Below, piece after piece: positions 7,417 to 54,955 of a stretch of 64,000 nt of DNA (positions within the stretch are counted from its first letter, which is position 1; each line of letters opens with the position of its first letter). The position numbers and the translations under genes are program-made. The DNA comes from an uncultured Lentisphaeria bacterium (GTDB lineage: Bacteria; Verrucomicrobiota; Lentisphaeria; Victivallales; UBA1829). Location: the NCBI GenBank assembly GCA_949287225.1, contig CASEFP010000120.1, positions 265 through 64,264 of the forward strand. Reading direction: 5' to 3'. The notes below the pieces were generated by a model. It was not told the DNA's origin. It did not search any database and worked only from the letters and a program-made list of their open reading frames with translations.

Positions 7417-9687
7417 ATGAAAAGAAATCTGAGCATCTGTATTCTGCTGTTGGCCATCTGTTCCGCTGCGTCGCCGTTTCGGACCGTTCTTCCGGAACGG
7501 GCGCAGCCGCATGAAACAACAGCCGAAAAAGAACTCACTCATTACCTGAATCTGGTTGCTGAGCAGGGATTGACTGTGGGCGGCAATGCTTCCTGCGTCT
7601 TCCATATCGGCGATACGCCTCTGGCGCGTGAGAAGGGGCTTTCCCCCGATCGCCTGCGGGATGAGGAGTGGGTCGTGAAATCCTTCAGCCGGAATATTGT
7701 CATCTCCGGCGGAGGAACACGCGGCACGCTGTACGGGGTTTACAATTTTCTGGAAAAGCAGTGCGGAATCCGCTGGTGGAATCCGGAAGAGGAATATGTG
7801 CCGGAGACAAAATCCCTCTCGCTTTCCGCGCTTGACATGCGTGGAAAACCCGTCTTCATCTACCGGAATGTCTACCGCTGGCCGATGGCGGACGATATGG
7901 GGCGTTTTGCCGCGCGCAGCAGAATCAACCACAACGGCCCGAACCGTATTGCCAGCCAGTATGGAGGAGCCTTTTACTACGGGCCGCCGAAGCATGTCCA
8001 CACCTTTGATGAATACATCCCCGAGGCGAAATACAGAAAAGAGCATCCGGAATATTTCGCACTGGTCGGCGGAGAGCGCAAAGGCGGTAATTTCCGCGGA
8101 CAGCTCTGCCTTTCCAATCCGGAGGTCAGGACGGTGTTTCTGAACCGTCTTTACCGGAACATCCGGGCGGGGAGACACATGGCTGTCTTTTACGAGACCG
8201 CCGAGCCGCGTCTTTACGACATCTCGCAGAACGATGATGCAAAGCCCTGTTCCTGTCCGGGATGTCTTGCTCAGATTGAAAAACACGGATATTCCGGGCA
8301 GATTCTGCTGTTTGTCAATTCTCTTGCGCGCGAAGTGAGAAAAACGCATCCCGACATCATGCTGACGACTCTGGCATACGGCTATTCTCTTCCGCCGCCG
8401 AAGGATGACATCCGCGCGGAGGACAATGTGATTGTGAAGATCTGCCGCAACGCGACAAATGCCGGAGTTTCCATTCATCACAGGGATAATGCGGTATTCG
8501 CCGATACATTGCGCGCCTGGAAAAAACATGCCGCGAATCTTTTCATCTGGGATTATGCGGTTTCATACTGGGACGGCATCAAGGGGCTTCCATTCGCCAG
8601 CGAGCTGAGCTATCAGGAGAAACATCGCTTTTATCATGCGAACAGTGTCACCGGTGTCTTCTGGGAGCATGAATATCCGCATTTAGCCGACATGTACGAC
8701 CTGAAAGTCTATCTGGAAGCCAGATTGATGGAGAATCCGGATCTTGACTTTGACGGTCTCCTGGGTGATTTCATGGAGAAATACTACGGTTCCGCGGGAA
8801 AATATGTCTATGCATATCGGAAGCGCATTGACCGTGCCATGTTGGAAAACAAGGGATACATCGGCGGAAATCCGCGTCTCTGCACGTTCGAATATCTGGA
8901 TGAGAACACGATGCTGGAGTGTCACGAACTGATGGATCAGGCGGAAAAGGCCGTCAAAGATTCGCCTCTTTTTGTCCGCCGGGTGCGGAGGGCGCGTCTG
9001 GGACTTGACCGTTTCACCTGCCGCAAAGGCGCGGGAAGGCCCCTCCCTTACTTCGGCGGGAATCTTCCTCCTTCCAGACTGGATTTCGCCTCTGCGGAAA
9101 AACGGGTCATGGAATATCTGCCGGACGCGTGGAAAATTTTTCCGCCGAGCAGGGATCGCGATGTCCTTCAGAAAGAAATTGAGCTTGAAATCAGGCAGTA
9201 TCATATTCCCGCCTTGAAAAAAACGCTTCCGGTTCCGGAAAAATTCCGGGGCAGGCGCGGATTCGATTTCAATGCGAATTATTTCGAGGATCATTCTCAT
9301 GGCAGACACAAACTGGTCAAGGTCACGGACAATGAATCCGGTCTTGCCGTCAAAATCGACTGTTCCGATCCGAAATACTATCGCCTGCCCTGGGAAATGG
9401 GATTTTACAATACCGCAGCGGCAAAAGGGTTCAACTGGATCAAAATCGGGAAACCTGCCGGGAAGGGGTATCATTGGTACCCGCTTGGACATGCGGAGAA
9501 TCTCCGGGATTCCTTCCTGCTCCTCAATGCCGCCTGGGCAACGCAGTTCCATTTCCTCTGGGATGAAGTCCTGAACAGGCCCTTCGAGGTATGGGTCTCT
9601 CTGAAATTCGAAGGGAAAGACTTTTTCCCAGAGGATAAAAGAGAGAGCGCCGTCTACCTGGAACGTGCCGTATTTCTTGAACCGTAA
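7417..9687 (+). CDS. DUF4838-type secreted glycan-active protein (GH67/GH20-N-like N-terminal domain)
   Basis: ORF 7399..9687. The start is taken at MKRNLSICILLLAICSAA (signal peptide). The N-terminal pattern VISGGGTRGTLYGVYNFLEKQCGIRWWNPEE is characteristic of DUF4838 proteins. It is a paralog of 56846..59266. The family call is from memory, not from a search. Confidence 0.75.
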   Translation: MKRNLSICILLLAICSAASPFRTVLPERAQPHETTAEKELTHYLNLVAEQGLTVGGNASCVFHIGDTPLAREKGLSPDRLRDEEWVVKSFSRNIVISGGGTRGTLYGVYNFLEKQCGIRWWNPEEEYVPETKSLSLSALDMRGKPVFIYRNVYRWPMADDMGRFAARSRINHNGPNRIASQYGGAFYYGPPKHVHTFDEYIPEAKYRKEHPEYFALVGGERKGGNFRGQLCLSNPEVRTVFLNRLYRNIRAGRHMAVFYETAEPRLYDISQNDDAKPCSCPGCLAQIEKHGYSGQILLFVNSLAREVRKTHPDIMLTTLAYGYSLPPPKDDIRAEDNVIVKICRNATNAGVSIHHRDNAVFADTLRAWKKHAANLFIWDYAVSYWDGIKGLPFASELSYQEKHRFYHANSVTGVFWEHEYPHLADMYDLKVYLEARLMENPDLDFDGLLGDFMEKYYGSAGKYVYAYRKRIDRAMLENKGYIGGNPRLCTFEYLDENTMLECHELMDQAEKAVKDSPLFVRRVRRARLGLDRFTCRKGAGRPLPYFGGNLPPSRLDFASAEKRVMEYLPDAWKIFPPSRDRDVLQKEIELEIRQYHIPALKKTLPVPEKFRGRRGFDFNANYFEDHSHGRHKLVKVTDNESGLAVKIDCSDPKYYRLPWEMGFYNTAAAKGFNWIKIGKPAGKGYHWYPLGHAENLRDSFLLLNAAWATQFHFLWDEVLNRPFEVWVSLKFEGKDFFPEDKRESAVYLERAVFLEP

Positions 9688-9726
9688 TGCGCTTCCCCTG
9701 CGCTGAGGAAAACGGGGAGGGAAAAT

Positions 9727-10079
9727 GGAGACGGCGGCGGTAAGCCGGATTCTGTTCCTCCTCCGAAGAAGAGGCGGCGACCATCTGTCTATGCGACCAG
9801 AACCCGGGATTCAAACGCCGCGAGCAACGGCTCATCCCCTATTTGGTCTTGCTCCGGGAGGGGCTTGCCTTGACGGAGGGAATTGCTTCCGCTCCCGGCG
9901 GGCTCTTGCCCCGCCTTTTCACCCTTGCCGGATTCGCATCCGGCGGTATGCTTTCTGTTGCGCTTTCCTTTCCGGGGCATATCGTCCCCGGCATCCCCTT
10001 GTGCAGGGGACTCCCCGCTCTGTGGAGTCCGGACTTTCCTCCGGCCCGACAGGACCGGCGGCCGCCTGCCGCCGTCTCC
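9727..10079 (-). ncRNA. rnpB: RNase P RNA, bacterial type A
   Basis: The reverse complement reads GGAGACGGCGGC...GGAGGAAAGUCCGGACUCCACAG...GCAACAGAAAGCAUACCGCC...GGCAAGGGUGAAAAGGCGGGGCAAGAGCCCGCC...CCCGGAGCAAGACCAAAUAGGGG...ACAGAAUCCGGCUUACCGCCGCCGUCUCC. All universally conserved RNase P blocks are present. The P1 helix forms between the 5' GGAGACGGCGGC and the 3' GCCGCCGUCUCC. The ends are good to within a few nt. Confidence 0.93.
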
Positions 10080-15167: not shown

Positions 15168-15304
15168 CTCCTCCCTGATTTTCCGGAAACGGAAAAATGC
15201 AGAGCATTTTCTCTGGGGCAAGGGCCGGAGGCGAGACGCCGGCCGCGCTGAGCGCGAAATCCCCGTCAGGAGTTTCTTCCCTTGCTTATACGCCGCGCGT
15301 TTGG

Positions 15305-41528: not shown

Positions 41529-41584
41529 TTTCGGGAGATTGCCTCTGCCAGCCCGCTTGCGTCTCTGTAATGATTTCAAGAGAC

Positions 41585-41769
41585 GGAAAAATGCGGAAGC
41601 ATTTTTCCCGGGGTCAAGGGCCGTCGGCCCTTGTCGCGGTCCAGCGGCGAGACGCTGGTCGCGCGGAGCGCGAAATTTTTCCGCCTTCGGCGGCCAGCTT
41701 GCGCAGCTGGACCGCGGCAGGACTGAAAGTCCTGCACGAATCATAATTTGCGTTGCAAATTATTTTTTT
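41585..41769. repeat. Short copy of the hairpin-array inverted-repeat element (8 consecutive stem-loops)
   Basis: Stem-loops read directly from the sequence:
- 41585-41608: ggaaaaatgc-ggaa-gcatttttcc
- 41615-41633: caagggcc-gtc-ggcccttg
- 41641-41658: ccagcg-gcgaga-cgctgg
- 41659-41673: tcgcgc-gga-gcgcga
- 41681-41693: ccgcc-ttc-ggcgg (central dyad)
- 41694-41710: ccagct-tgcgc-agctgg
- 41717-41735: gcaggact-gaa-agtcctgc
- 41743-41763: ataatttgc-gtt-gcaaattat, followed by T6-7
The left roughly 100 bp and part of the right arm are homologous to 54241-54779. Confidence 0.75.
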
Positions 41770-41794: not shown

Positions 41795-43948
41795 TTATTC
41801 CCGTTCCGGCTGTTTGAAAACCGTGATGTTGCCGTTTGCGGGTTTCGCCGTTTCCTTTGCTTTCGTCAGGCGCTGTTTATAATAGTCGTAAAGGACATTC
41901 TGGCTTCTGGTTTTCTCGTAAGCGCTCATGCCAGTGGTTTTGGAATACTGATTGATTCCTGTGACGCGTCTGCCTTTTCTGCGGTCGTTCAGGCAGGTAT
42001 GGAGGATGAAATCGAGTTCCTCGCGGATTTCGGGTGCGTCAACGGGGAAGAGCGTTTCGATTCTGCGCCGGAGGTTGCGCGGCATGAGATCGGCGCTGCC
42101 CATGTAGTATTCCGGGGAGCCGTTGTTGAGGAAGTAATAGATGCGTGAATGTTCGAGATAACGGTCGAGGATGCTGACGATCCGGATGTTTTTCGCAAAT
42201 TCCGGCGGCAGGCAGTAGGGAGTGATTCCGCAGATGCCCCGGACGATCAGTTCGATCTTGACATGGCGGCATGCCGCGCGGTAGAGATGTTCGATCACCT
42301 CGTAGTCGATGATGGAGTTCACCTTGATGATGATGTGTCCGGGATTCTCCTTTGTCGAGATGCGCGCCTCGCGGTCGATGAGGAAAAGGATTTTTTCGAG
42401 CATGTTGAAGGGGGCGACGACGAGCTTGTTCCAGTCCGGCGGAGCGGAAAAGCCTGTGATGACGTTGAAAAGCGCGGAAACGTCGGTGGCCAGCACCTTG
42501 TCTGCGGAGAAGTATCCGATATCGGTATAGAGCCGCGCGGTCTTGTCATTGTAGTTTCCGGTGCTGAGATGGACGTAGCGGCGGATGCCGTCGTCCTCGC
42601 GGCGGATGACCATCAGCGCCTTGCAGTGCACCTTGAGTCCGGCGATGCCGTAGACGACGTGTGCGCCGGCCTCGGCGAGTTCGCGTGCCCAGATGATGTT
42701 GTTCTCCTCGTCGAATCGCGCCTTGAGCTCGACGAGCACGGAAACCTGTTTGCCGTTCCGCGCGGCCTTGACAAGCGCCTTGACCACGGGCGAGTTTCCG
42801 CTGACGCGGTAGAGTGTCTGCTTGATCGCCAGAACATCCGGATCCTCAGCCGCCTGCTCAAGCAGCTTGACGACCGGATCGAATGACTCATACGGATGGT
42901 GGACGAGGAAGGGTCCTTGCTCGCGGATTGCCGCAAACATGTCGCGCTTCCCGAGGAGATGCGGCGACTGGAGCGGGGGAAGCGGCTCGTCGACGAGCTC
43001 CGGATATCCCTGAAGCGAGGCGAGCGCGAACATGGATTTCAGATTCATGATGCCGCTGATCGGCTGGATGAGGCGTGTGCCCGATTCAGTGATGTTGAGT
43101 TTTTCCAGCAGCCATTTTTTCGACTTTGCCGAGATGCCGGAAGAGAGTTCAAGCCGGACGAGACTGCGCTTGGTTTTCTTGCGCAGCGCGATCTGGATTT
43201 CAGTCATCAGGTCGGCGATGGACTCTTCGTCGATGGAAAAATCCATGTCGCGGGTGACGCGGAACATGGCGCACTCCTTGATTTCCGCGCCGGAAAAGAG
43301 CAGATTGAGGTTGTTTCCGATGAGTTCCTCGGCTGTGATGCAGACCAGTCCGTTCGCCGAGCTTTCGATCTGAATGAATCTGGGAATCACGGGCGGCACT
43401 TCGAGCACCGCGAATTTTTCGGTTTTCTCCTTTGCCGGGACGAGGCGGATCAGAATTTCCAGCCCGAGATTCGGCACGAGCGGGAACGGATGCGACTGGT
43501 CGATTCCGATCGGCGTCAGCACCGGATAGATTTCCGAGGTCATGATTTTGAGCGCGGTGTTTTTCTGGAGCGCACTCAGGGAGTCCCAGCTTTCGATGCG
43601 GATCTTGTGCCTGCGCAGCTCGGGCAGAATGTCGTTGTTGAGATAGCGGTACTGGCGCGCGACAAGCTCCCTGATCCGGCGCTCGAGTTCCGCGAGGAGT
43701 TCCGCGGGCTCGTAGCCGTATTCACGGTAGATTTTGTGGAACTTCGTGTCAAGCTGACTGGTGATGCCCGCGATGCGGACCATGAAGAACTCGTCCAGGT
43801 TGCTGCTGAAAATGGCGATGAATTTGAGGCGTTCCAGCAGGGGATTTCCTTTGTCCGCGGCTTCATCGAGCACACGCGCATTGAACTCCAGCCAGCTGAT
43901 GTCGCGGTTGAGAAATTCGAATTGGATTTTTTCTTTTTTCTGTATCAT
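41795..43948 (-). CDS. ppk: Polyphosphate kinase 1
   Basis: ORF 41795..43993. The start is taken at MIQKKEKIQFEFLNRDISWLEFNARVL (ATG 43948, preceded by GGAGG). It has the PPK1 N-terminal, head and twin PLD-like C domains (LKVHCKALMV, YLEHSRIYYF). Confidence 0.93.
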   Translation of the reverse strand: MIQKKEKIQFEFLNRDISWLEFNARVLDEAADKGNPLLERLKFIAIFSSNLDEFFMVRIAGITSQLDTKFHKIYREYGYEPAELLAELERRIRELVARQYRYLNNDILPELRRHKIRIESWDSLSALQKNTALKIMTSEIYPVLTPIGIDQSHPFPLVPNLGLEILIRLVPAKEKTEKFAVLEVPPVIPRFIQIESSANGLVCITAEELIGNNLNLLFSGAEIKECAMFRVTRDMDFSIDEESIADLMTEIQIALRKKTKRSLVRLELSSGISAKSKKWLLEKLNITESGTRLIQPISGIMNLKSMFALASLQGYPELVDEPLPPLQSPHLLGKRDMFAAIREQGPFLVHHPYESFDPVVKLLEQAAEDPDVLAIKQTLYRVSGNSPVVKALVKAARNGKQVSVLVELKARFDEENNIIWARELAEAGAHVVYGIAGLKVHCKALMVIRREDDGIRRYVHLSTGNYNDKTARLYTDIGYFSADKVLATDVSALFNVITGFSAPPDWNKLVVAPFNMLEKILFLIDREARISTKENPGHIIIKVNSIIDYEVIEHLYRAACRHVKIELIVRGICGITPYCLPPEFAKNIRIVSILDRYLEHSRIYYFLNNGSPEYYMGSADLMPRNLRRRIETLFPVDAPEIREELDFILHTCLNDRRKGRRVTGINQYSKTTGMSAYEKTRSQNVLYDYYKQRLTKAKETAKPANGNITVFKQPERE

Positions 43949-43961
43949 GTTGGCGCCTCCG

Positions 43962-45485
43962 TTAAAGGAATACGACTTTGCGGGCGAAAACACTCCGGAA
44001 GTAGTGGGTGTCGATTTCGACCATGGATTCCGAGAAGTGCGAGATGTTGTCCTCCAGGCGGATGACGATGCGGTCGGGTTCGATCCGGATGTTCATGTGA
44101 TCGGGCGCCGCACCGGTTGCCGCCAGTCCGCAGGCGATCCGCAGGATCGATGCCAGCTTGTTGAGGATGGAACGGTCGTCCGGATTCAGCACGGCGTATT
44201 CCGGATGCAGGATTTTGGGTTCCGCCTTGCGGTGATAGCGCGCGACAAGGGCGGCAAGACGGCGCTCCCGCATCGAGATGCCCGGGATTTCCGTGTTCAG
44301 GATGAGATAGTGTGAGTGTTTGTGATAAGCCTGGTTGTTGACGAAGAGCCCGCTCTTGTGCAGGCGGGAGGCTATCCGCAGGATCAAGAGCTCGCGTTTG
44401 CCCAGCCCGTGCAGTTTTTCCAGAAGCGTGAAGAGCCGTTCTGCAAAACGGCAGGTGCGTTCGCTGTAGTCGTTCCAGCAGAGATAGCGCGCGGCGGTAT
44501 GGTTGATGAGGTTGTGAATCTGTTCGTCGAAGATGTCCTTGATGCCGAATTCCGTGTCGATGAAGTCGCGCATCAGCACGTCCCTTGTGGAGGCCATCGG
44601 GACGACGATCGACTGTGCGTCCGTCAGGCGGAGGAGGTTTTCCAGAATCATGCAGCAGGGTGCGATGGTCTCTGCCAGATCGGGTGGAATCCGGTAGGTT
44701 TCGCTGACCTCCTCCAGACTCATGTTGAGAATGTCCGAGCGCAGTTTGAAGAATTCGTCGCGCGAAAGGCTTGCCGCAAGCGCGGTGCGCCGTCCCGTCA
44801 GGCGCAGGAGCGTCCGGACCGAGGAGCCCATCGCGATGATCGTTTCCGCCTTGATGCGGCCGGAGATGTGCTCCAGTTCGCTGAAGGATTTATCGACGAG
44901 CGTGGAGACGAACTGCACCATTGCCGTCGAGGAGAACGTGCCGGGCATGAGTTCAATCGCGCGCAGGGTCCCGACTTTGAGCGTTTCCGTGAAGCGGAGC
45001 TGCCCGCAGTCGTAGGCGCTGACCTGGCAGGCGCCGGTTCCGATGTCCGCAATGAGCGTGGATTTGCGTGCAAAGCCGTATTTCGCGGGGACGTCGCTGA
45101 CTGTGGCGATGTAATCCAGCCGCGCCTCGTCCGTGCCGTCGAAGATCCGGATGTCGATTCCGGTGGCGTGGCGGACGCGCTCGATGAAGATTTCCGCGTT
45201 TCCCGCCTCGCGCACCGCGCTTGTCGCAATCGCGCGGCAGAGCGTGACGCCGTATTCGTCCATCTTCTGTTTGAAATTGCGAAGGATGCCGCAGAGGATC
45301 TGGATGGATTCATCGGCGATCATCGCCGTGCGGAAGACGTTCGATCCGAGCGGAACTGGCATTTCGAGCTCCTCCAGCTCGACGAAGGAGCGGTCCGCGA
45401 CATTGACCTCGGCGATGAGCATCCGGGCGGAATGCGCCCCGATGTCGATCGTCGCCATCAGCTTTTTTTCCGCTTTCCGGGACAT
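43962..45485 (-). CDS. ppx: Exopolyphosphatase (Ppx/GppA family) with a C-terminal HD-like domain
   Basis: 507 aa with the ASKHA fold N-terminus ATIDIGAHSARMLIAEV, ADIGTGACQ and a C-terminal helical/HD region (RLHKSGLFVNNQAYHKHSHYLI). It lies 13 nt upstream of ppk. Confidence 0.88.
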   Translation of the reverse strand: MSRKAEKKLMATIDIGAHSARMLIAEVNVADRSFVELEELEMPVPLGSNVFRTAMIADESIQILCGILRNFKQKMDEYGVTLCRAIATSAVREAGNAEIFIERVRHATGIDIRIFDGTDEARLDYIATVSDVPAKYGFARKSTLIADIGTGACQVSAYDCGQLRFTETLKVGTLRAIELMPGTFSSTAMVQFVSTLVDKSFSELEHISGRIKAETIIAMGSSVRTLLRLTGRRTALAASLSRDEFFKLRSDILNMSLEEVSETYRIPPDLAETIAPCCMILENLLRLTDAQSIVVPMASTRDVLMRDFIDTEFGIKDIFDEQIHNLINHTAARYLCWNDYSERTCRFAERLFTLLEKLHGLGKRELLILRIASRLHKSGLFVNNQAYHKHSHYLILNTEIPGISMRERRLAALVARYHRKAEPKILHPEYAVLNPDDRSILNKLASILRIACGLAATGAAPDHMNIRIEPDRIVIRLEDNISHFSESMVEIDTHYFRSVFARKVVFL

Positions 45486-45487
45486 GT

Positions 45488-46468
45488 TCAGACGTTGCCC
45501 TTTCCGCGCGCAAGAATGGTGGCGCCCATCGCGACAGCGTCGTCGCCGTATGCGCTGCGTCTGATCTTGATTTTCGAGGGCGGAATGCCGAAGAGGTGCG
45601 CTTCAAAGCTCTTCCGGAAGACCGGCAGGATCACGTCGCCCATCGAGACCGTCACGCCGCCGCCGAGCACGATGCACTCCGGCGCGACGACCGCGCAGGT
45701 CGAGGCCGCCGCGATGCCGAGCATGACCGAACCCTTGTCCACGGCGTTGCGCACGGCGGGATCGCCCGCGGCATAGGCCTTCGCCAGATATTTGCTCTTG
45801 ATGTTCGTTGACTTCATGTCGAATTTGTCCGAAGGCAGAAGCGTGTCGAGCCCGCGTTTACGGATCTCCTTCTTGATCGCCTTCACATAGGCGATTTTAC
45901 TGCAGTAGGCCTCGATGCACCCCTTGTGCCCGCAGCCGCAGCGCCGTCCGCCCTTGCGGATGATCATGTGCCCGAGTTCGCCGGCAAGTCCGCAGTTGCC
46001 CTTCAGAAGTCTGTCGCCGATGACGAGCCCGCCGCCGAGCCCCGTCCCGATGAAGTAGCCGACGACGGAGTGACAGCCTTTCGCCGCGCCCGAATGGTAT
46101 TCGCTCAGGGTGCCGAGGTCTCCGTCGTTTCCGAGATAGACCTCCTTGCCGGTCAGCTTGCGGAGGATCGCCTTCATCGAGAGGTTCCGGACACCGAAGT
46201 TCGTGGCGAAGTGCGCGTCGCCCGTGACGGGATCGACGGGGGAGGGGAGCGCCGCGCCGATGTGGGCGACGTCCGCCAGCGTGAGATTTTTTTCCGCCAG
46301 CGCGAGCCTGCCGGTTTCAATCATCGCCTGGGCAATCTGTTCCGGTGTGGATTTCGCATCCGTCTGCGTTTTCGCGGTCGCCAGAATGCGGTTTGAAGCA
46401 TCGGTGACGATCGCATAGATTTTGCTTCCGCCGAGATCAATGCCGAGAGCCAGATCATTCGCGTTCAT
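45488..46468 (-). CDS. ROK-family sugar kinase (glucokinase-like)
   Basis: 326 aa with ALGIDLGGSKIY, GNDGDLG, GTGLGGG and the ROK zinc motif GELGHMII...CGCGHKGCIEAY. It ends 2 nt before the ppx start. Confidence 0.85.
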   Translation of the reverse strand: MNANDLALGIDLGGSKIYAIVTDASNRILATAKTQTDAKSTPEQIAQAMIETGRLALAEKNLTLADVAHIGAALPSPVDPVTGDAHFATNFGVRNLSMKAILRKLTGKEVYLGNDGDLGTLSEYHSGAAKGCHSVVGYFIGTGLGGGLVIGDRLLKGNCGLAGELGHMIIRKGGRRCGCGHKGCIEAYCSKIAYVKAIKKEIRKRGLDTLLPSDKFDMKSTNIKSKYLAKAYAAGDPAVRNAVDKGSVMLGIAAASTCAVVAPECIVLGGGVTVSMGDVILPVFRKSFEAHLFGIPPSKIKIRRSAYGDDAVAMGATILARGKGNV

Positions 46469-46637
46469 GGGGCACTTCCTTTCGTGTCTGGGTTGTCTGT
46501 GTCATGCCGCGACGCGGAGAAACTCTGTCCGTATCCCCCCGTTTCCCGCTTTCTCCGGACACACGGGAGTGCATCGCTTCATGGGATAACCTAATCCGTG
46601 AAAGGAATTTTGCAACAGCGGATTTGTTGGAAATTCA

Positions 46638-48308
46638 TTAGAATTTCACCACGCTGTAACCGTCCGGCGAGTTGCCGGCGCTGGATTTGCGCCATTCATA
46701 GGGCGGGAACGTATCTTTGTAATCCTCCGTCACCACGTCCGTGCGGGAGACGAAATAGATCTCTTTGCCTTTTTCCTTTTCGCGGCGGATCAGCTCTCTG
46801 AGCGCCGCAACGTCGGGGAGATGGCGGTGTTCCGCCTCGGGATATTTCAGTCCGTAGTCAATCTCGCCGCGCGAAACGAACATGTAGGCGTCCGCGCGTT
46901 TGTAGACCCAGCAGACATCCTGGAACGGGCGGCGGAACGTGACAAGCGCCGCATCCTTCGGCACCGGGACCGTTGCGAGGAATTCGGACGGAGCTTTGCG
47001 TTCCGATACGATGTCCGGGAACACGAAATGCGAACAGATCACCGTGTAGAGAAATCCGTAGAGGTAAAGCGCGATTTTCCGTTCCGGCGTATTTGTTTTC
47101 AGCGCATAGAGCATGCATTCCGCCCAGACGAGAGCAGCTAGAACAACCAGGATATATTTCAGAAACTCATGAGACGCATACAGCCCGACGGGCCACGCCG
47201 TGAACTGGTTGACGGTCAGCGCGATGACACCGAGAATCAGGACTGAGGAAAAAAGAATCGCCGTGATTTTGAAGGAGAGCATGCTTTTCCTTTCCGTGAA
47301 GAACCGTTCCGACAGCCCCGCCGCGATCAGGATCGAGAGCGGCGCGAAGCACGGCAGAATGTAGGTCGCCAGCTTCCCGCTGGAGCAGGAAAAGAACAGG
47401 AACGGCATGACGAAACAGCAGAGGCTGTATTTGAGCAGTTTGTTTGAGAAGATGCTTTTCCGCAGTCCGAGCACCGCGTCCGGCAGCATGATGATCCACT
47501 GGAGGAGTCCCAGCAGAAGCACCGGAACGAAGTAGAAGAACGACTCGCTGTGCTGCGCCTTTTCCTGTCCGAAGAAGCGGTTGAGGTGCTCCACGAAGAC
47601 GAAATAGTTCCAGTAGTCCGGTTCCGCGCGGTGCACGGCAATCGCCCAGGGCGCCGAAATCACGATCACACCGAGGAGCGGCAGCCACGGCAGAGTCAGA
47701 ATCTCCTTCCAGCGCTTTTCCCAGACCAGATACGGCACGATGCTTACGGCGGGAACCGCGAAGGCAAGAAACCCTTTTGTGAGAAACGCGCATCCGCACA
47801 GGAGCCCGGAAAGAAAGAGGTAAAACCATTTCTTTTTCCGCGGACAGTTTTCTTCAATTGCAAGGAAGAAAAACGCATTTGTCGCCGTCAGGAAGAAGGT
47901 CAGGATCGGGTCGAGAATGCCGACCGAGCCGAGCACAAAAACCAGCGGCAGTGTCAGAAAAATTGCTGTTGCGAACAATGCTGTTTTCCGTTCGAGGCAG
48001 CGCAGCGAGAGCAGATAGATCAGAAGCGCGCATCCGAGCGTCGCCAGCATTCCCGGCAGACGGAGCGCAAAAGAGTTTTCCCCGAAAAGTTTCATTGATG
48101 CCGCCCAGAGCCAGTATCCCATCGGCGGCTTTTCAAAGTAGCGGACGCCGTTGAGTTTTGGAGAAACCCAGTCGCCGCTTTCAATCATTTCCCGCGCGAT
48201 TTCCGCATAGCGCGTTTCATCGGGCGCCATCAGCGGACGGCCTCCGATGGGAAGGATGAAGAAGAGCGCCACGGCGCAGAGGGCGAGCAGAAACCATTTG
48301 TTTTTCAT
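46638..48308 (-). CDS. arnT: Undecaprenyl-phosphate-L-Ara4N:lipid A transferase ArnT-like (GT83)
   Basis: 556 aa polytopic protein. The N-terminus PDETRYAEIAREMIESGDWVSPKLNGVRYFEKPPMGYW closely matches the E. coli ArnT N-terminus as I remember it. Confidence 0.85.
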   Translation of the reverse strand: MKNKWFLLALCAVALFFILPIGGRPLMAPDETRYAEIAREMIESGDWVSPKLNGVRYFEKPPMGYWLWAASMKLFGENSFALRLPGMLATLGCALLIYLLSLRCLERKTALFATAIFLTLPLVFVLGSVGILDPILTFFLTATNAFFFLAIEENCPRKKKWFYLFLSGLLCGCAFLTKGFLAFAVPAVSIVPYLVWEKRWKEILTLPWLPLLGVIVISAPWAIAVHRAEPDYWNYFVFVEHLNRFFGQEKAQHSESFFYFVPVLLLGLLQWIIMLPDAVLGLRKSIFSNKLLKYSLCCFVMPFLFFSCSSGKLATYILPCFAPLSILIAAGLSERFFTERKSMLSFKITAILFSSVLILGVIALTVNQFTAWPVGLYASHEFLKYILVVLAALVWAECMLYALKTNTPERKIALYLYGFLYTVICSHFVFPDIVSERKAPSEFLATVPVPKDAALVTFRRPFQDVCWVYKRADAYMFVSRGEIDYGLKYPEAEHRHLPDVAALRELIRREKEKGKEIYFVSRTDVVTEDYKDTFPPYEWRKSSAGNSPDGYSVVKF

Positions 48309-48312
48309 TGTG

Positions 48313-49218
48313 TCACCTTTCCTGGGAGGGGGAGTCTTGTTTCAGCGCCAGCCACCCTTCGCGTCCGGGAATCTCCCCTTTCACGATGGATGCGCGCGGC
48401 AGCGACGCCGGATCATCGGGCAGCAGATCGCCCGGCGCGGCGAACGAGATTCCGCGCGCCTTCGCCATATCGAGGAATTCCTCAAACATCTGCAGACATG
48501 CTCCGCCTTCGGCTTCGGCATGGATCGTCAGCATGTTCTGCGCGTCTTCCCGGACGGTCGCCAGGAGACGCTCGTTGTAGTTTTCATTGGTCACGCCGTT
48601 TTTGCCGAGCATTTCATCATAAGTCGGCATGTTGAGCGGAAATTGCGGTGTTGCCAGAACCTTTCCGTCCACGAGAGGCAGAAAAACACCCGTGCCGCGG
48701 CAGTCGCTGTTGTAGCGGAAATGGAAGCGTTCCTTCACAAGAAGGGTGCTCTCCACGCATTTCCATCCGGGAACGGCGGAGCAGACCGGAGGTTTTCCGG
48801 TAATCCGCTCCAGTTCATCATACGCTTTTTTGATGTGCGCATAGATAGCATCTGAATTCATTTTATCCACATGCGCCTGCCATGCGTGGTGATCCCATGC
48901 GTGAACACCGATTTCATGCCCGGATGCCGCACAGGCGCGGATCGTGTCCGCGAGACGCGCGCCGATCCGTGGGCCCGGCCACATCGTTCCCATCAGGAGA
49001 ATGTCAAGCCCGTAGAGACTCGCCGCCTTCGTCCGCATCATCTTCCACAGGAAAGCCGGCTTGAGGAGCCGCCAGATATGGCGTCCCATGTTGTCCGGTC
49101 CGACGGAGAAGAAGAACGCCGCACGGATGCCGTGTCTGTCCAGCACGCGGCAGAGGTTCGGCACGCCGTCGCGCGTGCCGCGGAAGGTGTCCACATCGAC
49201 TCGAAGCGCGATTTTCAT
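48313..49218 (-). CDS. arnD: 4-deoxy-4-formamido-L-arabinose-phosphoundecaprenol deformylase ArnD (polysaccharide deacetylase fold)
   Basis: 301 aa: [22 protein letters not shown]...[19 protein letters not shown]...[11 protein letters not shown]. This is ArnD-like throughout. Its start overlaps the arnA stop by 4 nt. Confidence 0.85.
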
Positions 49219-51206
49219 TTGACGGTGAACTCGCCGGATTCCACCGCCTGGCGGAGGAAGAAGTCCAGCGTCATCTTGATGGAGTCTTTGAGCTTGACCT
49301 GCGGCTCCCAGTCACAGTATCTCTTCGCGTTGCGGATGCTCGGCTTTCTGTGCTGGACGTCCTGATACCCCTTGCCGTAGAAACTGCTGCTCTCGACCTC
49401 CTTGTAACCGGCGAACGGCGGGAATTTCTTCCGGAGCGGATGTTTCTCGAACTGCTTCACCAGTTCCTCGGCAAGCTCCTTGATGCTCGCCTCGTTGGAG
49501 GGACAGCCGATGTTGATGATCTTCCCGTCGCATTTCCCGTCCTTGTTTTCGATGATCCGGAACAGGCACTCGATGCCGTCGGTGACGTGGGTGAAGCAGC
49601 GCTTCTGCGCGCCTCCGTCGATCAGCTGGATCGGCGTGCCCTGGACAAGATTGAGGATCAGCTGCGTGATCGCGCGCGAACTGCCGATTCTCGCGGAGGA
49701 GAGGCTGTCCAGCTTCGGCCCCATCCAGTTGAACGGACGGAACAGCGTGAACTTGAGCTGGCCCTTTGCGCCGTAGGCCCAGATGACGCGGTCGAGCATC
49801 TGCTTGGAGCAGGAGTAGATCCAGCGCTGCATCCGGATCGGACCGGTGATGAGCGGGGAGTTGTCCTCGTCGAAACTTTCGTCCGTGCACATGCCGTAGA
49901 CTTCCGAGGTGGACGGGAAGATGATGCGTTTGCCGTATTTGACGCAGCAGCGGACAATCCGGAGATTCTCTTCAAAATCGAGTTCAAACACACGGAGCGG
50001 ATTCCGCGTATATTCAATCGGGGTCGCAATCGCGACCAGCGGAAGCACAATGTCGCACTTGCGGACATGGTATTCGATCCATTCGCGGTTGATCGTGATG
50101 TCGCCCTCGAAGAAGTGGAAGCCGGGGCGCCCGATCAGGTCGGAGATGTAGTTGGAGCGCAAGTCCATCCCGTAGACTTCGTAATCGCCGCTCTCCAGGA
50201 GCCGTTCACTGATGGCGCTCCCGATGAACCCGTTGACGCCGAGGATCAGGACGCTTTTCTTCTCCTTCTTCGCATTGCCCCGGAGCGAGCTGGTGAATAC
50301 CATCTTTTCCACCAGCTTGCACTCCTCCGCAAGCTGTGCGCCGGAGGAGTAAAGCCCGCCTTCCTGCTGGGCGTAACGGACAACCACCGCTCCCTTGCCG
50401 CAGGCGATTGTGAGCGGACTGGTCGAGAGCACCGTGCCGGGGAATGCCTTCGGCGCATTTTTCGCTTCGGCAACCTCCCAGAAGAGGTATTTCTTTTCTC
50501 CGAGATAACTGAAGGCTCCGGGATAGGGACGCGTGACGCCGCGCACGAGATTGCGGACCTCCGCGGCGCTTCTGCTCCAGTCGATGATGCCGTCCGCCGG
50601 TTTGCGCCCTCCGAAACAGGTGGCTTTCTTCTCATCCTGCTTCACGCCTTTGAGCGTGCCTTTTTTGAGTTTCGGGAGCGCGCCGCGCAGGAGTTTTGCC
50701 GCCGCCTTCGCAGCTTTTTCATGAACGTCGCGTGCGGTGTCGTTCGTGCCGATCGGGAATTTTTCCTGGGCGAGAATGTCGCCGGCATCGGGTTTTGCCG
50801 TCATATAATGAAGCGTCACGCCGGTCTCCTTCTCGCCGTTGATGACCGCCCAGTTGATCGGGCAGCGCCCGCGGTATTTCGGAAGAAGCGAGCCGTGCAG
50901 GTTGATGCATCCTTTCGAGGGAATTGCGAGAATTTCCTTTCCGACCATATTCCGGTAGTAGAAGGAGAAGATGAAGTCCGGTTTCATCTTTTCGATTTTC
51001 GCGACCCAGAGCGGATGGTTGATGTTGTCCGGCGCATAAAGAGGAAGATTCTTCTGCGAAGCGAGCTCCGCAACCGATTCAAACCAGAGATTTTCATTCG
51101 GATCGTCCCTGTGTGTGAACACCGCCTGAATTTCAAATCCGTTTTCGAGAAGCGCGCGGATTCCCTCGCATCCGATATTGTTGTAAGCCAGAACGACTGC
51201 TTTCAT
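49215..51206 (-). CDS. arnA: Bifunctional UDP-GlcA decarboxylase / UDP-L-Ara4N formyltransferase ArnA
   Basis: 663 aa. The formyltransferase half has [17 protein letters not shown]. The SDR decarboxylase half has [10 protein letters not shown] and [33 protein letters not shown]...[11 protein letters not shown]. These are long near-identical runs to E. coli ArnA as remembered. Confidence 0.92.
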
Positions 51207-51238
51207 TCGTGATCTCCTGCTAGTCTGTGAGCGTTGCG

Positions 51239-52198
51239 TTATTTTTCCTCAGTTGCACCTGTGACCTTTTCCACAAAGTACTGCGGACGGCCGCGGGCGT
51301 TCAGATGAATCTTTCCGATGTATTCCCCGAGCAGTCCCATCGCGGCGAACTGCCCGCCCATGAACACGAACGCGATGGAAAAGAGCGTGAACACGCCGTT
51401 TGCGCCCCAGTCCTTATCATAGATCCGCGTCATGATGAAGATGACGATACCGAAGACGATGCCGAGAAAGGCGATGAAGAATCCGAAGAAGGTCAGCATC
51501 CGGAGCGGGAATGTGGAGGTTCCGGTCAGCAGGTCGTACTGCAGCGCGATCAGCTTCCAGATGGAGTATTTCGATTCTCCCGCTGCGCGTTCGGCGTGCC
51601 TGACGTTGACCTCTACCGAGCGGCGCGCGAACGACATTGCCAGCATCGGGATGAATTTGCCCTGTTCACGGCAGTTCAGAATCGCATTGACGACCGGGCG
51701 GCTGTATCCGCGGAGCATGCATCCGTAGTCGGTCATGACCTTTCCCTTGGTCAGTTTCCGCACGATCAGGTTGACGGTTTTCGAGGCGAGTTTGCGGAAG
51801 ATCGTATCTTTGCGATTCTCTCGGATGGAGCCGACGACATCGTAACCCTCTTCCAGTTTTTCGACCAGCTTGTGAATCTCCTCCGGCGGATTCTGGAGAT
51901 CGGCGTCCAGCGTGACGATGTATTTGCCGCGCGACTGGGCGAGTCCGGCGGTTACGGCCGCGTGCTGTCCGAAATTGGTTGTCAGAATGACGCCGATTAC
52001 TTTTCCGGGATGATTCCGGGAGGCTTCCTCGATCATGGAAACCGATTGATCCATGCTCCCGTCGTCAACCAGAATGATCTCATAAGAGCGTTTCATCTCT
52101 TCGCATGCGGCGAGCGTCCGCCGGATCATTTCCGGAAGATTCGGTTCCTCGTTGTAAACCGGAATCACAATGGATAGTTCAAGTGTGTCCGCTGCCAT
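51239..52198 (-). CDS. arnC: Undecaprenyl-phosphate 4-deoxy-4-formamido-L-arabinose transferase ArnC (GT2)
   Basis: ORF 51239..52234. The start is taken at [18 protein letters not shown] (ATG 52198). It has a GT2 DxD region ([13 protein letters not shown]) and two C-terminal TM helices. Confidence 0.88.
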
Positions 52199-52276
52199 GA
52201 TTGTTCCGTGGCTCCTCAGTAAAATTATCTGCAATTGTGCAATATACCGCCTGCGGCGGCATATTCCAAACCCGGA

Positions 52277-54073
52277 TCACTGAAAAATCGTGATTTTCCT
52301 TCTCTTCTCTTCTGGAACATTCAATGCGACGATCACGTATTTTTCCCTGCGGTTGTTTCTGTGTTCCCATTTCCGCACGGGTTCAGCCATGAAGACATTC
52401 TCCTGAATGATTTTGCGCAGTTCCGGTCTCTGGATACGCTGCCAGTCGCGGTACTCGGCGATCACGGCGACCGGCTTGTTTCCCGCATCCCTGAAGTAGC
52501 TGCAAAGATTTTTTTCCAGATCTTTTCCGGGGAAATCCCGGGCGAGGATTTCAATATGCTCTCCAAATGCGAGATAGTAGGACAGCTTGGTATAATTTTT
52601 TGACAGATAAGCCACATTGCCCTGGGAGATGCCGGCTTCCTTCATCTCGTGCGATGCTTCCAGAATGAACGTTTTCCCTGTCCGGAATTCAGCATCGACT
52701 ACGGGGAGGACGAGTCCGAAGATAAAGATCAGCAGCACCGCGCTCGAGACCGCCGTTCCGGGAAAACCGTGACAGGGGCAGAAACTCCATTTTGCATTGT
52801 CCTGCTTTCTCTTCCGGAAATAGAGGAAGAGGAAAATGAGCAGCAGTCCCAGCGGGAGCGGCGCACCGTAAATGAGCAGGCTGACGGCATACGGCAGATC
52901 GAAGGGCACAAAACGCTTCGCAAAGATCCAGAGCGCCGGAAGGAGCAGAACAAGGCAGCCGCCGATGAGAAAAACATATTGATAGATGTTCAGCAGAATT
53001 TCTTTTGCGCGTTCGAGCCATCCCGTTTCCATCCGGCAGAGATAAAGCGCCGTCAAAATCGCGCAGTAGGGCAGAATCGGAAGAATGTAATAGACGCGCT
53101 TTGATCCGGAGAGAGAGAACATGACGAAGATTGCGGCAATGGAGATTGTCAGCCAGCGCTCATCCGCTGAAAGCTCCTTCCATTTTCTGCAGGCCCATGC
53201 AAGAGCGAGGATGAGGAACGGCGTCCAGGGCAGGAACAGCTGCGGCAGATATTTGAAATAGTCATACCAGTCGCCCTTGTGGTCGAAGGGGGCGAAAAAG
53301 CGCGTGATGTTCTCACGGAACACGAGATAGATCCCATCGAAAGAGGTGTCCCCGTTTTTGAGCGCCACAAGCAGGAACGGCAGGAAATAGAGCAGGATGG
53401 ATACTATCCCTGCTCCGAAGAAACGCATGTTGAGGTGTTTTTTCCAGGTATTGTTCAACATAAGATCCACCAGCACGACGAGGACCGGAACCGCGATTGC
53501 GCTGAGTCCTTTTGTCTGGCCGCCCACTGCGCAGAGAGCCCCGAAGATCAGATAGGGTAGGAACGATGTCTTTTCCCGGTTGCGGATATACCAGGCGACT
53601 GCAAGAGTGCTGAAGGCGGTATTCAGCATGTCAGCTTCGGCGAGACGGCCCCAGAAGGCGAGGCTGTAAATGGTCAGCATGATCCAGCCTGCTGTCTGCG
53701 CGATGGCGCGTCCCCAGAGGTGTTCGGCAATGGCGCGTGCCGCCCAGAGGGTTGCCAGTGCGGCCAGTGCGCTTGGAATGCGGGCGATCAGTTCATTGAC
53801 GATTCCGTTGTTGAAGAGTGCGCAGAAGGCGATGAACCAGTAGCTCAGGATCGGCTTGTCGAAATAGATTTCGAAATTGATGGTCGGCTGGAAGAAATTG
53901 CCGCTCAGGAACATCTCACGGACGATGGCCGCCCAGCGTGCTTCGGAGCCGGAGATCCCCTTGACTCCGAGATTCAGGAAGAGCAGTCCGCAGGCCAGTG
54001 CCCAGAAGACGAGATCCGGGAGGTTCTGCATGGAGAAAAATTTTGATTTTGCGGAGATCGTATTCTGTTCCAT
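52277..54073 (-). CDS. GT39/GT83-like (ArnT/PMT-type) membrane glycosyltransferase paralog with a C-terminal soluble domain
   Basis: ORF 52277..54133. Start candidates are 54073 (MEQNT, preceded by GGAG), 54109 and 54133. The first loop reads GSEARWAAIVREMFLSGNFFQPTINFEIYFDKPILSYW and is alignable to the ArnT PDETRYAEI...YFEKP motif, but with SE in place of DE. Confidence 0.75.
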   Translation of the reverse strand: MEQNTISAKSKFFSMQNLPDLVFWALACGLLFLNLGVKGISGSEARWAAIVREMFLSGNFFQPTINFEIYFDKPILSYWFIAFCALFNNGIVNELIARIPSALAALATLWAARAIAEHLWGRAIAQTAGWIMLTIYSLAFWGRLAEADMLNTAFSTLAVAWYIRNREKTSFLPYLIFGALCAVGGQTKGLSAIAVPVLVVLVDLMLNNTWKKHLNMRFFGAGIVSILLYFLPFLLVALKNGDTSFDGIYLVFRENITRFFAPFDHKGDWYDYFKYLPQLFLPWTPFLILALAWACRKWKELSADERWLTISIAAIFVMFSLSGSKRVYYILPILPYCAILTALYLCRMETGWLERAKEILLNIYQYVFLIGGCLVLLLPALWIFAKRFVPFDLPYAVSLLIYGAPLPLGLLLIFLFLYFRKRKQDNAKWSFCPCHGFPGTAVSSAVLLIFIFGLVLPVVDAEFRTGKTFILEASHEMKEAGISQGNVAYLSKNYTKLSYYLAFGEHIEILARDFPGKDLEKNLCSYFRDAGNKPVAVIAEYRDWQRIQRPELRKIIQENVFMAEPVRKWEHRNNRREKYVIVALNVPEEKRRKITIFQ

Positions 54074-54240
54074 GGCTCCGAGTTCCTTTTGACGGTGTTG
54101 CTGTGTCATGATTTGAAAAAGCAAGTATAGCACTGGCGGAAATTCTTTTCAATCCGATTGTTGTTAGAATATTGTTAGAACTTCCGAACCGGACGTTATT
54201 CGGCCTGAATTTTATTTCCAGTTCGTGCCTGCATCAATAC

Positions 54241-54779
54241 GGAAGAATGCGCGAGCATTCTTCCCGGGGTCAAGGGTCGTTGACCCTTGTCGTGATCCAG
54301 CGGCGAAAACGCTGGTCGTGCGGAGCACGAAATCTTCCGCCCGGAGCGGTTCAGACCGCTCAGTGACGAGAACTTTTTCGCTGAAAAAGTTCGAGAGCTC
54401 CGGGCGTATTCATTGAGACGAAAGAATGCGCATGCATTCTTTCGTCTCCTATATATTCAATAATCACGAGAGCTTCGGGACTATTCCCGAGGTGATACGC
54501 TGTACCGGCACCTTTCGAGGAAGCGCTTCTCGTTTCTGAGTGGGAGGAAGCGTTGCCGGAGGGAGATTTCGCCTTTGGTGACCAGCTAGCGCAGCTTCGC
54601 GCGCTTTTTTGTTTGTTCGCATTTTTTAGCGCAGCTTCGCGCGCTTTTTTGTTTGTTCGCATTTTTTAGCGCAGCTTCGCGCGCTTTTTTGTTTCGCCTT
54701 CGGCGCCCAGCTTACGCAGCTGGACTGCGCAAGGGTCAAAGACCCTTGACCCCGAGAAAAATGTATTTGCATTTTTCCG
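54241..54779. repeat. Long copy of the hairpin-array inverted-repeat element (imperfect inverted arms of about 90 bp, hairpin-rich core, internal 40-bp tandem repeat)
   Basis: Left arm stem-loops:
- 54241-54264: ggaagaatgc-gcga-gcattcttcc
- 54271-54289: caagggtc-gtt-gacccttg
- 54297-54315: ccagcg-gcgaaaa-cgctgg
- 54316-54330: tcgtgc-gga-gcacga
Core stems lie at 54344-54361, 54370-54392 and 54415-54448 (a 15-bp perfect stem).
The right arm carries the modules in inverted order:
- 54708-54724: ccagct-tacgc-agctgg
- 54731-54749: caagggtc-aaa-gacccttg
- 54757-54778: gaaaaatg-tatttg-catttttc. Confidence 0.75.
54589..54695. repeat. Tandem repeat, 40-bp unit x about 2.7
   Basis: The unit agcgcagcttcgcgcgcttttttgtttgttcgcatttttt occupies 54589-54628 and 54629-54668 (identical copies). 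A third copy from 54669 diverges after about 27 nt. Confidence 0.85.
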
Positions 54780-54828
54780 TTTCTCAACAGCAGTTTGGGT
54801 TTTTCTATGAAAAGATCCCGGAGCGGCT

Positions 54829-54855
54829 TGAAAAATAATTTCGCAGAATTATATT
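54829..54855 (+). promoter_or_regulatory. Putative sigma-70 promoter of tRNA-Leu
   Basis: TTGAAA (54829-54834), then a spacer of about 15 nt, then TATATT (54850-54855), 14 nt upstream of the tRNA 5' end. It uses the same hexamers as the putative rpmB promoter. The spacer is shorter than optimal. Confidence 0.35.
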
Positions 54856-54869
54856 TCAGGAAATCCGTT

Positions 54870-54955
54870 GCCGAAGTGGCGGAATGGCAGACGCACTAGA
54901 CTCAAAATCTGGCGCTCTTACGGGCGTAAGGGTTCAAGTCCCTTCTTCGGCACCA
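54870..54955 (+). tRNA. tRNA-Leu (anticodon CAA), CCA encoded
   Basis: The acceptor stem is GCCGAAG/CTTCGGC. The anticodon stem is CTAGA/TCTGG with loop CTCAAAA (anticodon CAA). It has a long variable arm (GCGCTCTTACGGGCGT), a T arm GGG-TTCAAGT-CCC, discriminator A and a terminal CCA. Confidence 0.93.

Follow-up and report, generated by a model that had tools for sequence, protein, structure and literature searches.

In a 64,000-nt stretch of the genome of an uncultured Lentisphaeria bacterium (contig CASEFP010000120.1; hereafter the window), a composite element occupies positions 54239-54780, between a GT39/PMT_2-like gene and the gene for tRNA-Leu(CAA). It is probably one copy of a dispersed, non-coding, nested-palindromic mosaic repeat of gut Victivallales, similar in kind to repetitive extragenic palindromic (REP) sequences, to bacterial interspersed mosaic elements (BIMEs) and to REPINs, the REP doublets that form hairpins (Bertels and Rainey 2011, PMC3116915). 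The comparisons described below show that copies have reached unrelated sites, that their modules have been rearranged, that turnover between strains is fast and that the stems have been maintained. A preliminary description, made from the letters of the window alone, had hesitated between a structured RNA and DNA of the REP/BIME type or a miniature inverted-repeat transposable element (MITE). Its REP/BIME-like option has stood, in that the element is multi-copy and modular, occurs in both orientations, breaks assemblies and differs between strains by an indel; the large ornate RNA has not.

Anatomy of the element and its copies in the window

Alignment of the left arm of the element, a second copy at 41 kb and the reverse complement of the right arm defined a common module of ~95 nt, which runs through four different hairpins, hp1 to hp4. 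A covariance model (R1), built from 12 non-redundant copies of the module, located five modules (20 hairpins) at three intergenic loci of the window, and the result was the same with or without speed filters. The element at 41 kb is an inverted doublet, and that at 54 kb is an inverted doublet around a core. The features are as follows, with the genes that flank the 54-kb element at the end:

54239-54335, plus strand: L-type (left) module of the long element, hp1 to hp4 with tail AAATC; R1 107.5 bits, E ~1e-19; perfect stems
54241-54264, plus strand: hp1 of the left module, 10 bp, loop GCGA
54271-54289, plus strand: hp2 of the left module, 8 bp
54297-54315, plus strand: hp3 of the left module, 6 bp
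54316-54330, plus strand: hp4 of the left module, 6 bp, loop GGA
54328-54571, plus strand: palindromic core, with inner inverted arms 54328-54372 and 54527-54571
54344-54361 and 54370-54392 (10 bp), plus strand: local stems of the core
54415-54448, plus strand: hp1-like hairpin of the core, a perfect 15-bp stem whose centre repeats hp1
54567-54596, plus strand: first, truncated copy of the right-arm start (hpA and half of hp3'), a direct repeat 83% identical to 54692-54721
54587-54694, plus strand: 40-nt tandem duplication, 2.7 copies, 100% identical (TRF score 216)
54689-54780, minus strand: right module, inverted; R1 58.5 bits
54695-54705, 54707-54723, 54730-54748 and 54756-54777: hairpins of the right module in plus-strand reading, hpA, hp3', hp2' and hp1', respectively
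41583-41678, plus strand: left module of the compact doublet, beginning 55 nt past the stop codon of an AMP-binding gene; R1 111.6 bits
41676-41766, minus strand: right (R-type) module of the compact doublet; R1 41.6 bits
15189-15262, plus strand: decayed singlet that has lost half of hp2; R1 47.8 bits, E ~4e-8
52277-54073, minus strand: GT39/PMT_2-like gene (Pfam PMT_2)
54870-54955: tRNA-Leu(CAA)

All of the hairpins that had been listed for the left arm, the core and the inverted right arm are present where the preliminary description placed them. Of the 539 nt that it called almost entirely self-complementary, ~108 nt (54587-54694) are a perfect tandem duplication of a 40-nt unit, in every copy of which a small hairpin is followed by a T-run. 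Since the 40-nt repeat begins within the truncated duplicate of the right-arm start, it looks like the product of a recent slippage or duplication event. The outermost arms of the element (54239-54289 and 54730-54780) are 82% complementary over 51 nt, and the ends of the arms read ACGGAA...TTCCGT.

The copy at 41 kb had previously been placed at 41585-41769 and was located here at 41583-41766. The three compensatory changes noted between it and the 54-kb copy (A:T/G:C in hp1, C:G/T:A in hp2 and C:G/T:A in hp4) are correct. Its right module terminates with an AT-rich hairpin and T7, 29 nt from the stop codon of ppk. Compact doublets close with a hairpin and then a T-run, and at 41 kb hp4 is followed by AATTTTT. 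The third, decayed copy, at 15189-15262, comes in addition to the two that had been recognised before; it lies between convergent genes, one of them for a pseudouridine synthase, whose stop codon precedes it by 22 nt.

The family in gut Victivallales and the conservation of its stems

Public genome DNA was scanned with a pattern based on hp2, and metagenome DNA with a pattern based on hp3 and hp4. The genome scan found the module in two Victivallales metagenome-assembled genomes (MAGs), L105 and L109 (loci outside the window are numbered in this way throughout), and the metagenome scan found it in eleven further contigs, largely from human-gut assemblies. The mean column identity over the 12 non-redundant aligned copies, which come from unrelated loci, was 87%. 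According to rough gene calls based on open reading frames (ORFs) and on GC content at third codon positions (GC3), all module copies outside the window are intergenic. Collections of plasmids, phages and viral contigs contained no copies. Among the sequences compared, the family appears to be confined to one group of gut Victivallales (Lentisphaerota).

The module occurs in several arrangements. Stand-alone modules, or singlets, are found at L114, L115, L119, L120 and L121, and doublets at 41 kb in the window and in L109; in L109 and L117, a doublet is followed by another module in tandem. The inverted pair, with the left module on the plus strand and the right module on the minus strand, is seen at 41 kb, at 54 kb, in L105 and in L109, and tandem or mixed arrangements are seen in L109, L117 and L137. 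The long form with a homologous core is present at three unrelated loci, namely the window, L105 and L137 (on the opposite strand in the last), among which the core is ~80% identical. In L137, the core lacks the central 15-bp hairpin and is flanked by R-type arms on both sides, and the 40-nt tandem duplication is not present in the long form of L105. The family is therefore a mosaic, and at least three types of component contribute to it: the L-type arm, the R-type arm and the core. The flanks of the hairpins are invariant, with ACGG before hp1 and GGGT, G(G/A)T and GGT before hp2, hp3 and hp4, respectively.

The singlets in contigs of metagenome ERZ824600 are intact, with R1 scores of 105-112 bits, compared to 47.8 bits for the decayed singlet of the window. 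These singlets (L119 11896-11950; L120 ~3183-3260; L121 ~7806-7900) directly precede G-poor, microsatellite-like tracts, such as (CATTCAAT)n and CCATT/CCATC repeats.

Relative to dinucleotide shuffles, the minimum free energy (MFE) of folding of 54236-54785 had z-scores of -11.72 (plus strand) and -11.67 (minus strand), and that of the 41-kb copy had a z-score of -8.36. A census of perfect stem-loops with a stem of at least 7 bp, in which nested hits on one hairpin were counted separately, gave 87 hits in the 64 kb, with 19 in kb 54 and 10 in kb 41. In an alignment of 18 copies, which was fitted to R1 and thereby favours the structure, 97.7% of the stem cells pair, compared to 86.9% after shuffling of columns and 36-43% when the partners were slid by 1-3 columns. 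Fifteen of the 30 pairs had changed on both sides (7.4 expected) and the covariation score was 0.299 (0.113 in the shuffles); the observed values were reached in none of 500 shuffles. Seven compensatory pairs were already present in an independent MAFFT/RNAalifold run on 12 copies. The proposal that paired substitutions preserve the stems, made originally from two copies, was thus borne out across 18.

The long-range pairing between the arms is ~74% Watson-Crick, much poorer than that of the local hairpins, which indicates that a set of small hairpins is conserved, and not one giant hairpin. The GNRA tetraloops of hp1 in the two window copies had been taken as a shared feature; in other copies this loop reads AAC, ATG, GCCG, ACCG, TCAC, GAAG, GATG, GCCC or GACA. 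The loop sequences of hp1 and hp2 thus vary freely, and GNRA loops are not conserved.

Setting, turnover and origin of the copies

By the same rough gene calls, five copies are sense and four are antisense to the adjacent gene. The 54-kb copy is flanked by diverging promoter-like sites: that at 54152-54124 (minus strand) would serve the GT39-like gene and that at 54828-54855 the tRNA. No plus-strand promoter-like site was found upstream of the copy. The gap from the end of the element to tRNA-Leu is 90 nt and contains the promoter-like site of the tRNA. A connection with the tRNA, the adjacency of which the preliminary description had remarked on, was not supported, since the tRNA has its own promoter-like site and the other copies do not adjoin tRNAs.

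Five independent assemblies (L129, L137, L138, L139 and L142) terminate within the element, and L129, which is 96.5% identical to the window, stops exactly where the left module ends. L141, 99.95% identical to the window, comes from the same strain and has the same element at 41 kb. In L142, the neighbouring 568-aa AMP-binding protein is identical, but 92 nt, comprising hp1-hp3 and 17 nt of flank, are missing. A 12-kb block (window ~41803-54041) that is syntenic in other Victivallales species ends precisely at the 41-kb and 54-kb elements. At the corresponding gene ends of relatives with 92% protein identity no module was found, and an ordinary hairpin or unrelated sequence is present instead. 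No clean empty site was found among the orthologous loci of relatives at 77-94% protein identity, because synteny stops exactly where the elements sit.

The 41803-54041 block encodes GT39/PMT_2, GT2, an ArnA-like formyltransferase/epimerase, a polysaccharide deacetylase, PMT, a ROK kinase, Ppx and Ppk1. Just outside the 41-kb element, window 41529-41582 differs from L142 6500-6540 by a 3-nt indel and several substitutions within ~25 nt, and the left module of L129 is only ~90% identical to that of the window, compared to 96.5% for the flanking genes. Such differences suggest that divergence may be locally raised near the element, or that conversion may have occurred between copies.

The element had also been likened to large ornate RNAs such as ROOL and GOLLD. 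No Rfam family, including ROOL, GOLLD, HEARO and OLE, matched it: at the gathering threshold, only RNase P and tRNA were found in the whole window, and at E-values up to 10, region 54100-54900 gave four chance-level matches to unrelated families. (The RNase P match, at 9725-10077 on the minus strand, is a bacterial class A RNA, with 208 bits.) When the repeat sequences themselves were looked for in the literature, only primers and unrelated passages came up, and a search for Victivall* together with “palindromic” gave nothing relevant; no described Victivallales repeat family was found in these searches. Taken together, the orientation of the copies, the promoters, the assembly breaks, the strain difference, the synteny and the databases are more readily explained by a dispersed repeat in the DNA than by a single gene for an RNA.

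Two other identities were considered. TIGR (Tas-associated) arrays have box C/D motifs, two ~9-nt spacers in the loop and an adjacent tas gene with a Nop domain (bioRxiv 10.64898/2026.09.09.750476). This identity was rejected, because the loops of 3-7 nt are too short to hold two spacers; no Nop-domain gene was present among eight neighbouring genes scanned. A CsrA-type sponge displaying GGA loops was also considered, on the basis of one conserved loop per module.

In the way it works, the Victivallales element is most like the REP/BIME and REPIN elements (PMC3116915 and PMC2817692). Like the REP/BIME sequences of Enterobacteria and Pseudomonas, it is present as many intergenic copies of short palindromic units, forms mosaics of alternating orientation with other motifs, lies mostly at the 3' ends of genes and between convergent genes, shows compensatory changes in its stems and occurs in both orientations. 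It differs from them in that its unit comprises four different hairpins in a fixed order (~95 nt) instead of one 20-40-nt palindrome, in that it has no GT[AG]G or CGTC tag and no RAYT (REP-associated tyrosine transposase) gene, of the kind that REPs flank, was found in the DNA searched, and in that its host belongs to the Planctomycetes-Verrucomicrobia-Chlamydiae (PVC) group. As in REPINs, two inverted modules surround a spacer and are predicted to pair into a single long hairpin when single-stranded, as DNA or as RNA; modules also occur singly (the one in the window is decayed), and no target-site duplication is seen. Unlike those of REPINs, the arms contain several hairpins and have diverged into L-type and R-type, and the spacer can hold a palindromic core of ~240 nt. 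REPIN doublets are better conserved than singlets; here, the ERZ824600 singlets are intact (105-112 bits) and the window singlet is decayed.

Correia elements (Correia repeat enclosed elements, CREE) of Neisseria, and the enterobacterial repetitive intergenic consensus (ERIC) sequences or intergenic repeat units (IRU) of Enterobacteria, may be comparable; these are dispersed, intergenic imperfect palindromes, 100-200+ bp in length, and if co-transcribed they can fold in the RNA. A Correia element carries defined terminal repeats of 26 bp together with a TA duplication. The Victivallales element shows neither of these, and its single arms occur alone. The REPs of the GTAG- and CGTC-tagged super-families (Di Nocera et al. 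2013, PMC3733652) share with it a hairpin that has a short unpaired tag to one side, an arrangement as head-to-head dimers and a location between unidirectional and convergent genes; its own flanks are different, with (G)GGT before hp2, hp3 and hp4 and ACGG at hp1. ROOL, GOLLD, HEARO and OLE resemble it only in their size range and richness in hairpins, and it differs from them in the lack of a covariance-model match and in being multi-copy, modular and variable in composition and orientation.

We infer that the family is a non-autonomous element, the copies of which are duplicated and moved as DNA. By analogy with RAYT/IS200-IS605-type systems, which leave no target-site duplication, the propagating machinery would recognise hairpins in single-stranded DNA; this mode of propagation is suggested by the single arms that stand alone, by the lack of a visible target-site duplication at the three doublets or long forms examined and by the frequency of inverted doublets. 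The 40-nt tandem duplication of the 54-kb copy would have been added by recent slippage. Copies would persist by landing in intergenic spacers, where those transcribed from the neighbouring gene may work as RNA hairpins, i.e., as orientation-independent hairpins at the 3' end that stabilise or terminate the transcript.

Several observations weigh against a mobile repeat of this kind. No transposase of any sort was found linked to the element at the loci examined, and a tblastn search of 330 kb of Victivallales DNA with E. coli RayT, a single distant query and less than a whole genome, returned nothing. The 5' tags GT[AG]G and CGTC, as defined in PMC3733652, are absent from the aligned copies. 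The 92-nt indel of L142 is the sole within-species difference seen and its ends do not match the ends of the module; it shows turnover, and not precise transposition. The compensatory changes can also arise from selection at the RNA level or from hairpin-templated repair, and are no proof of a role at the DNA level. Finally, any figure for the copies in a genome is an extrapolation from 64 kb. Since the tags are lacking and the search for RAYT was limited, we use the term REP/BIME-like, and do not assign the repeat to the GTAG or CGTC super-family.

The main rival to a dispersed REP/BIME-like repeat is a host cis-element, in which hairpin clusters are selected as terminators or as barriers to 3' exonucleases at the ends of transcripts, and are spread or kept by their use in RNA and not by mobility. 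Hairpin clusters have been reported to mark intrinsic termination sites (PMC8355165), and many of the copies are suitably placed, beginning 8-55 nt past a stop codon (window 15189, window 41583, L109 and L116) and, at two of the three window loci, lying between convergent genes. Orientation would be immaterial to such a function, because each hairpin is a palindrome and would form in either orientation. An intrinsic terminator is a G+C-rich hairpin with a U-tract directly after it, placed in the sense orientation downstream of a gene. The ends of the compact doublets, the 40-nt repeat units and hp4 at 41 kb fit this form, but the U-tract is missing from most hairpins and some copies are antisense. 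A host cis-element is thus compatible with most copies, but not with that at 54 kb, which sits between diverging promoter-like sites, with no flanking gene reading into it. Moreover, near-identical sequences at unrelated loci imply copying rather than independent selection, and a simple hairpin replaces the element at the orthologous gene end of a 92%-identical relative. We consider it unlikely that selection by the host accounts for the family.

A classical MITE, that is, a deletion derivative of a DDE-type insertion sequence that has long terminal inverted repeats, is mobilised in trans and leaves target-site duplications, would account for the terminal inverted arms (51 nt, 82% complementary), the element sizes of 185-540 bp, the occupation of unrelated loci and the indel between strains. 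However, no target-site duplication was visible by eye at window 41 kb, window 54 kb or L105, where the ends of the element are fuzzy, and the filled and partly empty pair (window and L142) had no duplication either. Among the loci examined there was no transposase between two arms and no insertion sequence with the same ends, and stand-alone single arms are common, which is unexpected for an element that depends on terminal repeats. A plain MITE, one of the forms proposed in the preliminary description, was therefore not supported and is quite improbable.

For the long form (left module, core and right module), the remaining alternative is a gene for a structured non-coding RNA. This RNA could be large and new, or a small, sponge-like one whose hairpin loops would include the GGA that is conserved in hp4. 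The fold is strong (z -11.7) and the core is ~80% identical across three species, but the minus strand folds equally well. In a count of mismatches made to tell RNA from DNA, and one strand from the other, G:T outnumbered A:C overall (56 vs 37) and on the plus strand of the window copy (18-23 vs 7-8), but the copies disagreed, as L105 (8 vs 9) and L137 (10 vs 11) show no such excess. The composition is variable, in that L137 has no core hairpin and has R-type arms on both sides and the tandem duplication is restricted to the window; neither neighbourhood nor orientation is conserved; and the element has no preceding plus-strand promoter-like site and no match in Rfam. An RNA gene is thus very unlikely.

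As a repeat that breaks metagenome assemblies, marks breakpoints of synteny and differs between close strains, the Victivallales element is of practical concern, and a covariance model would aid the finishing of MAGs, their annotation (with fewer spurious calls of ORFs or RNAs) and the typing of strains. With it, the range of REP/BIME-like repeats now includes a gut lineage of the PVC group, in the unusual form of a fixed four-hairpin module without known tags, and it must be asked anew which enzyme, if any, makes copies of such elements.

Hairpin arrays preceded by GGGT in other phyla

Among the listed matches to the hp2 pattern were more than 100 loci outside the Victivallales (L001-L113 except L105 and L109). 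At each of these, the match lies in a tandem array of 2-4 GC-rich hairpins of ~24 nt, with the form GGGGT-NNN-GGGGC-loop-GCCCC-N'N'N' (e.g., L015 7464-7526, L014 6070-6169 and L021 222-295); one array reads GGGGTCTGGGGG..CCCCCAG CGGGGTCAAGGGGCAGAGCCCCTTG CGGGGTGTGGGGC..GCCCCAC. The hosts include Ruminococcus and other Clostridia, Oscillospiraceae, Selenomonadaceae, Turicibacter, Defluviitaleaceae, Acetobacteraceae, Rhodospirillales, Desulfovibrionales, Streptomyces, Nocardia and Ardenticatenia. In ~750 kb of these loci there are 202 arrays of at least two adjacent perfect hairpins, and GGGT makes up the four bases before the stem in 216 of ~470 array hairpins.

By rough gene calls, 30 arrays are co-directional with and 25 antisense to the neighbouring genes, which represents no bias, and 20 lie at convergent gene pairs compared to 7 at divergent pairs. 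This distribution relative to genes is REP-like. A search of 18 of the loci against Rfam found only a T-box, and no family covered the arrays; sequence-based literature searches found no paper on them. A tblastn search of the ~750 kb with E. coli RayT gave chance matches, the best of which, in L088, falls within a 497-aa ORF that is unlike any transposase.

GGT also stands before each of hp2, hp3 and hp4 in the Victivallales module. The resemblance of these hairpins to the GGGT-flanked arrays is suggestive, and is partly built in, as the loci were found with the hp2 pattern. For this reason, the R1 scores of 27-41 bits on array loci were discarded as circular evidence of homology. We raise only tentatively, as a rather doubtful proposition, that the Victivallales module might be an elaborated member of a third REP-like super-family, spread across phyla, made up of tandem arrays of ~24-nt hairpins preceded by (G)GGT, which an enzyme other than the classical GTAG-specific RAYT would propagate or recognise. 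If this link is true, there would be a large, multi-phylum class of intergenic hairpin repeats that is still without a name or a mechanism.

Two further sequences were seen at the array loci. In Ruminococcus and other Clostridia, a longer stretch is shared around the hp2-like hairpin (L010 3992-4101, L034 2875-2949, L047 2973-3081, L072 ~3400-3520 and L097), which reads ..ttttcgctcaagcc-loop-ggcttg, CGGGGTCAAGGG..CCCTTG, tcgccg-loop-cggcgaaa, ...gggtgaatttcaaaa.cagtccggtgga, and which may be a separate conserved non-coding element. A different repeat, a long hairpin (GGGGGCCATTCTCTCACGTGAGAGAATGGCCCCC) beside the GGGT-type hairpin, is present in Hominicoprocola and related Oscillospiraceae (L003, L006, L009, L016, L019, L046 and L103), and several contigs end at it.

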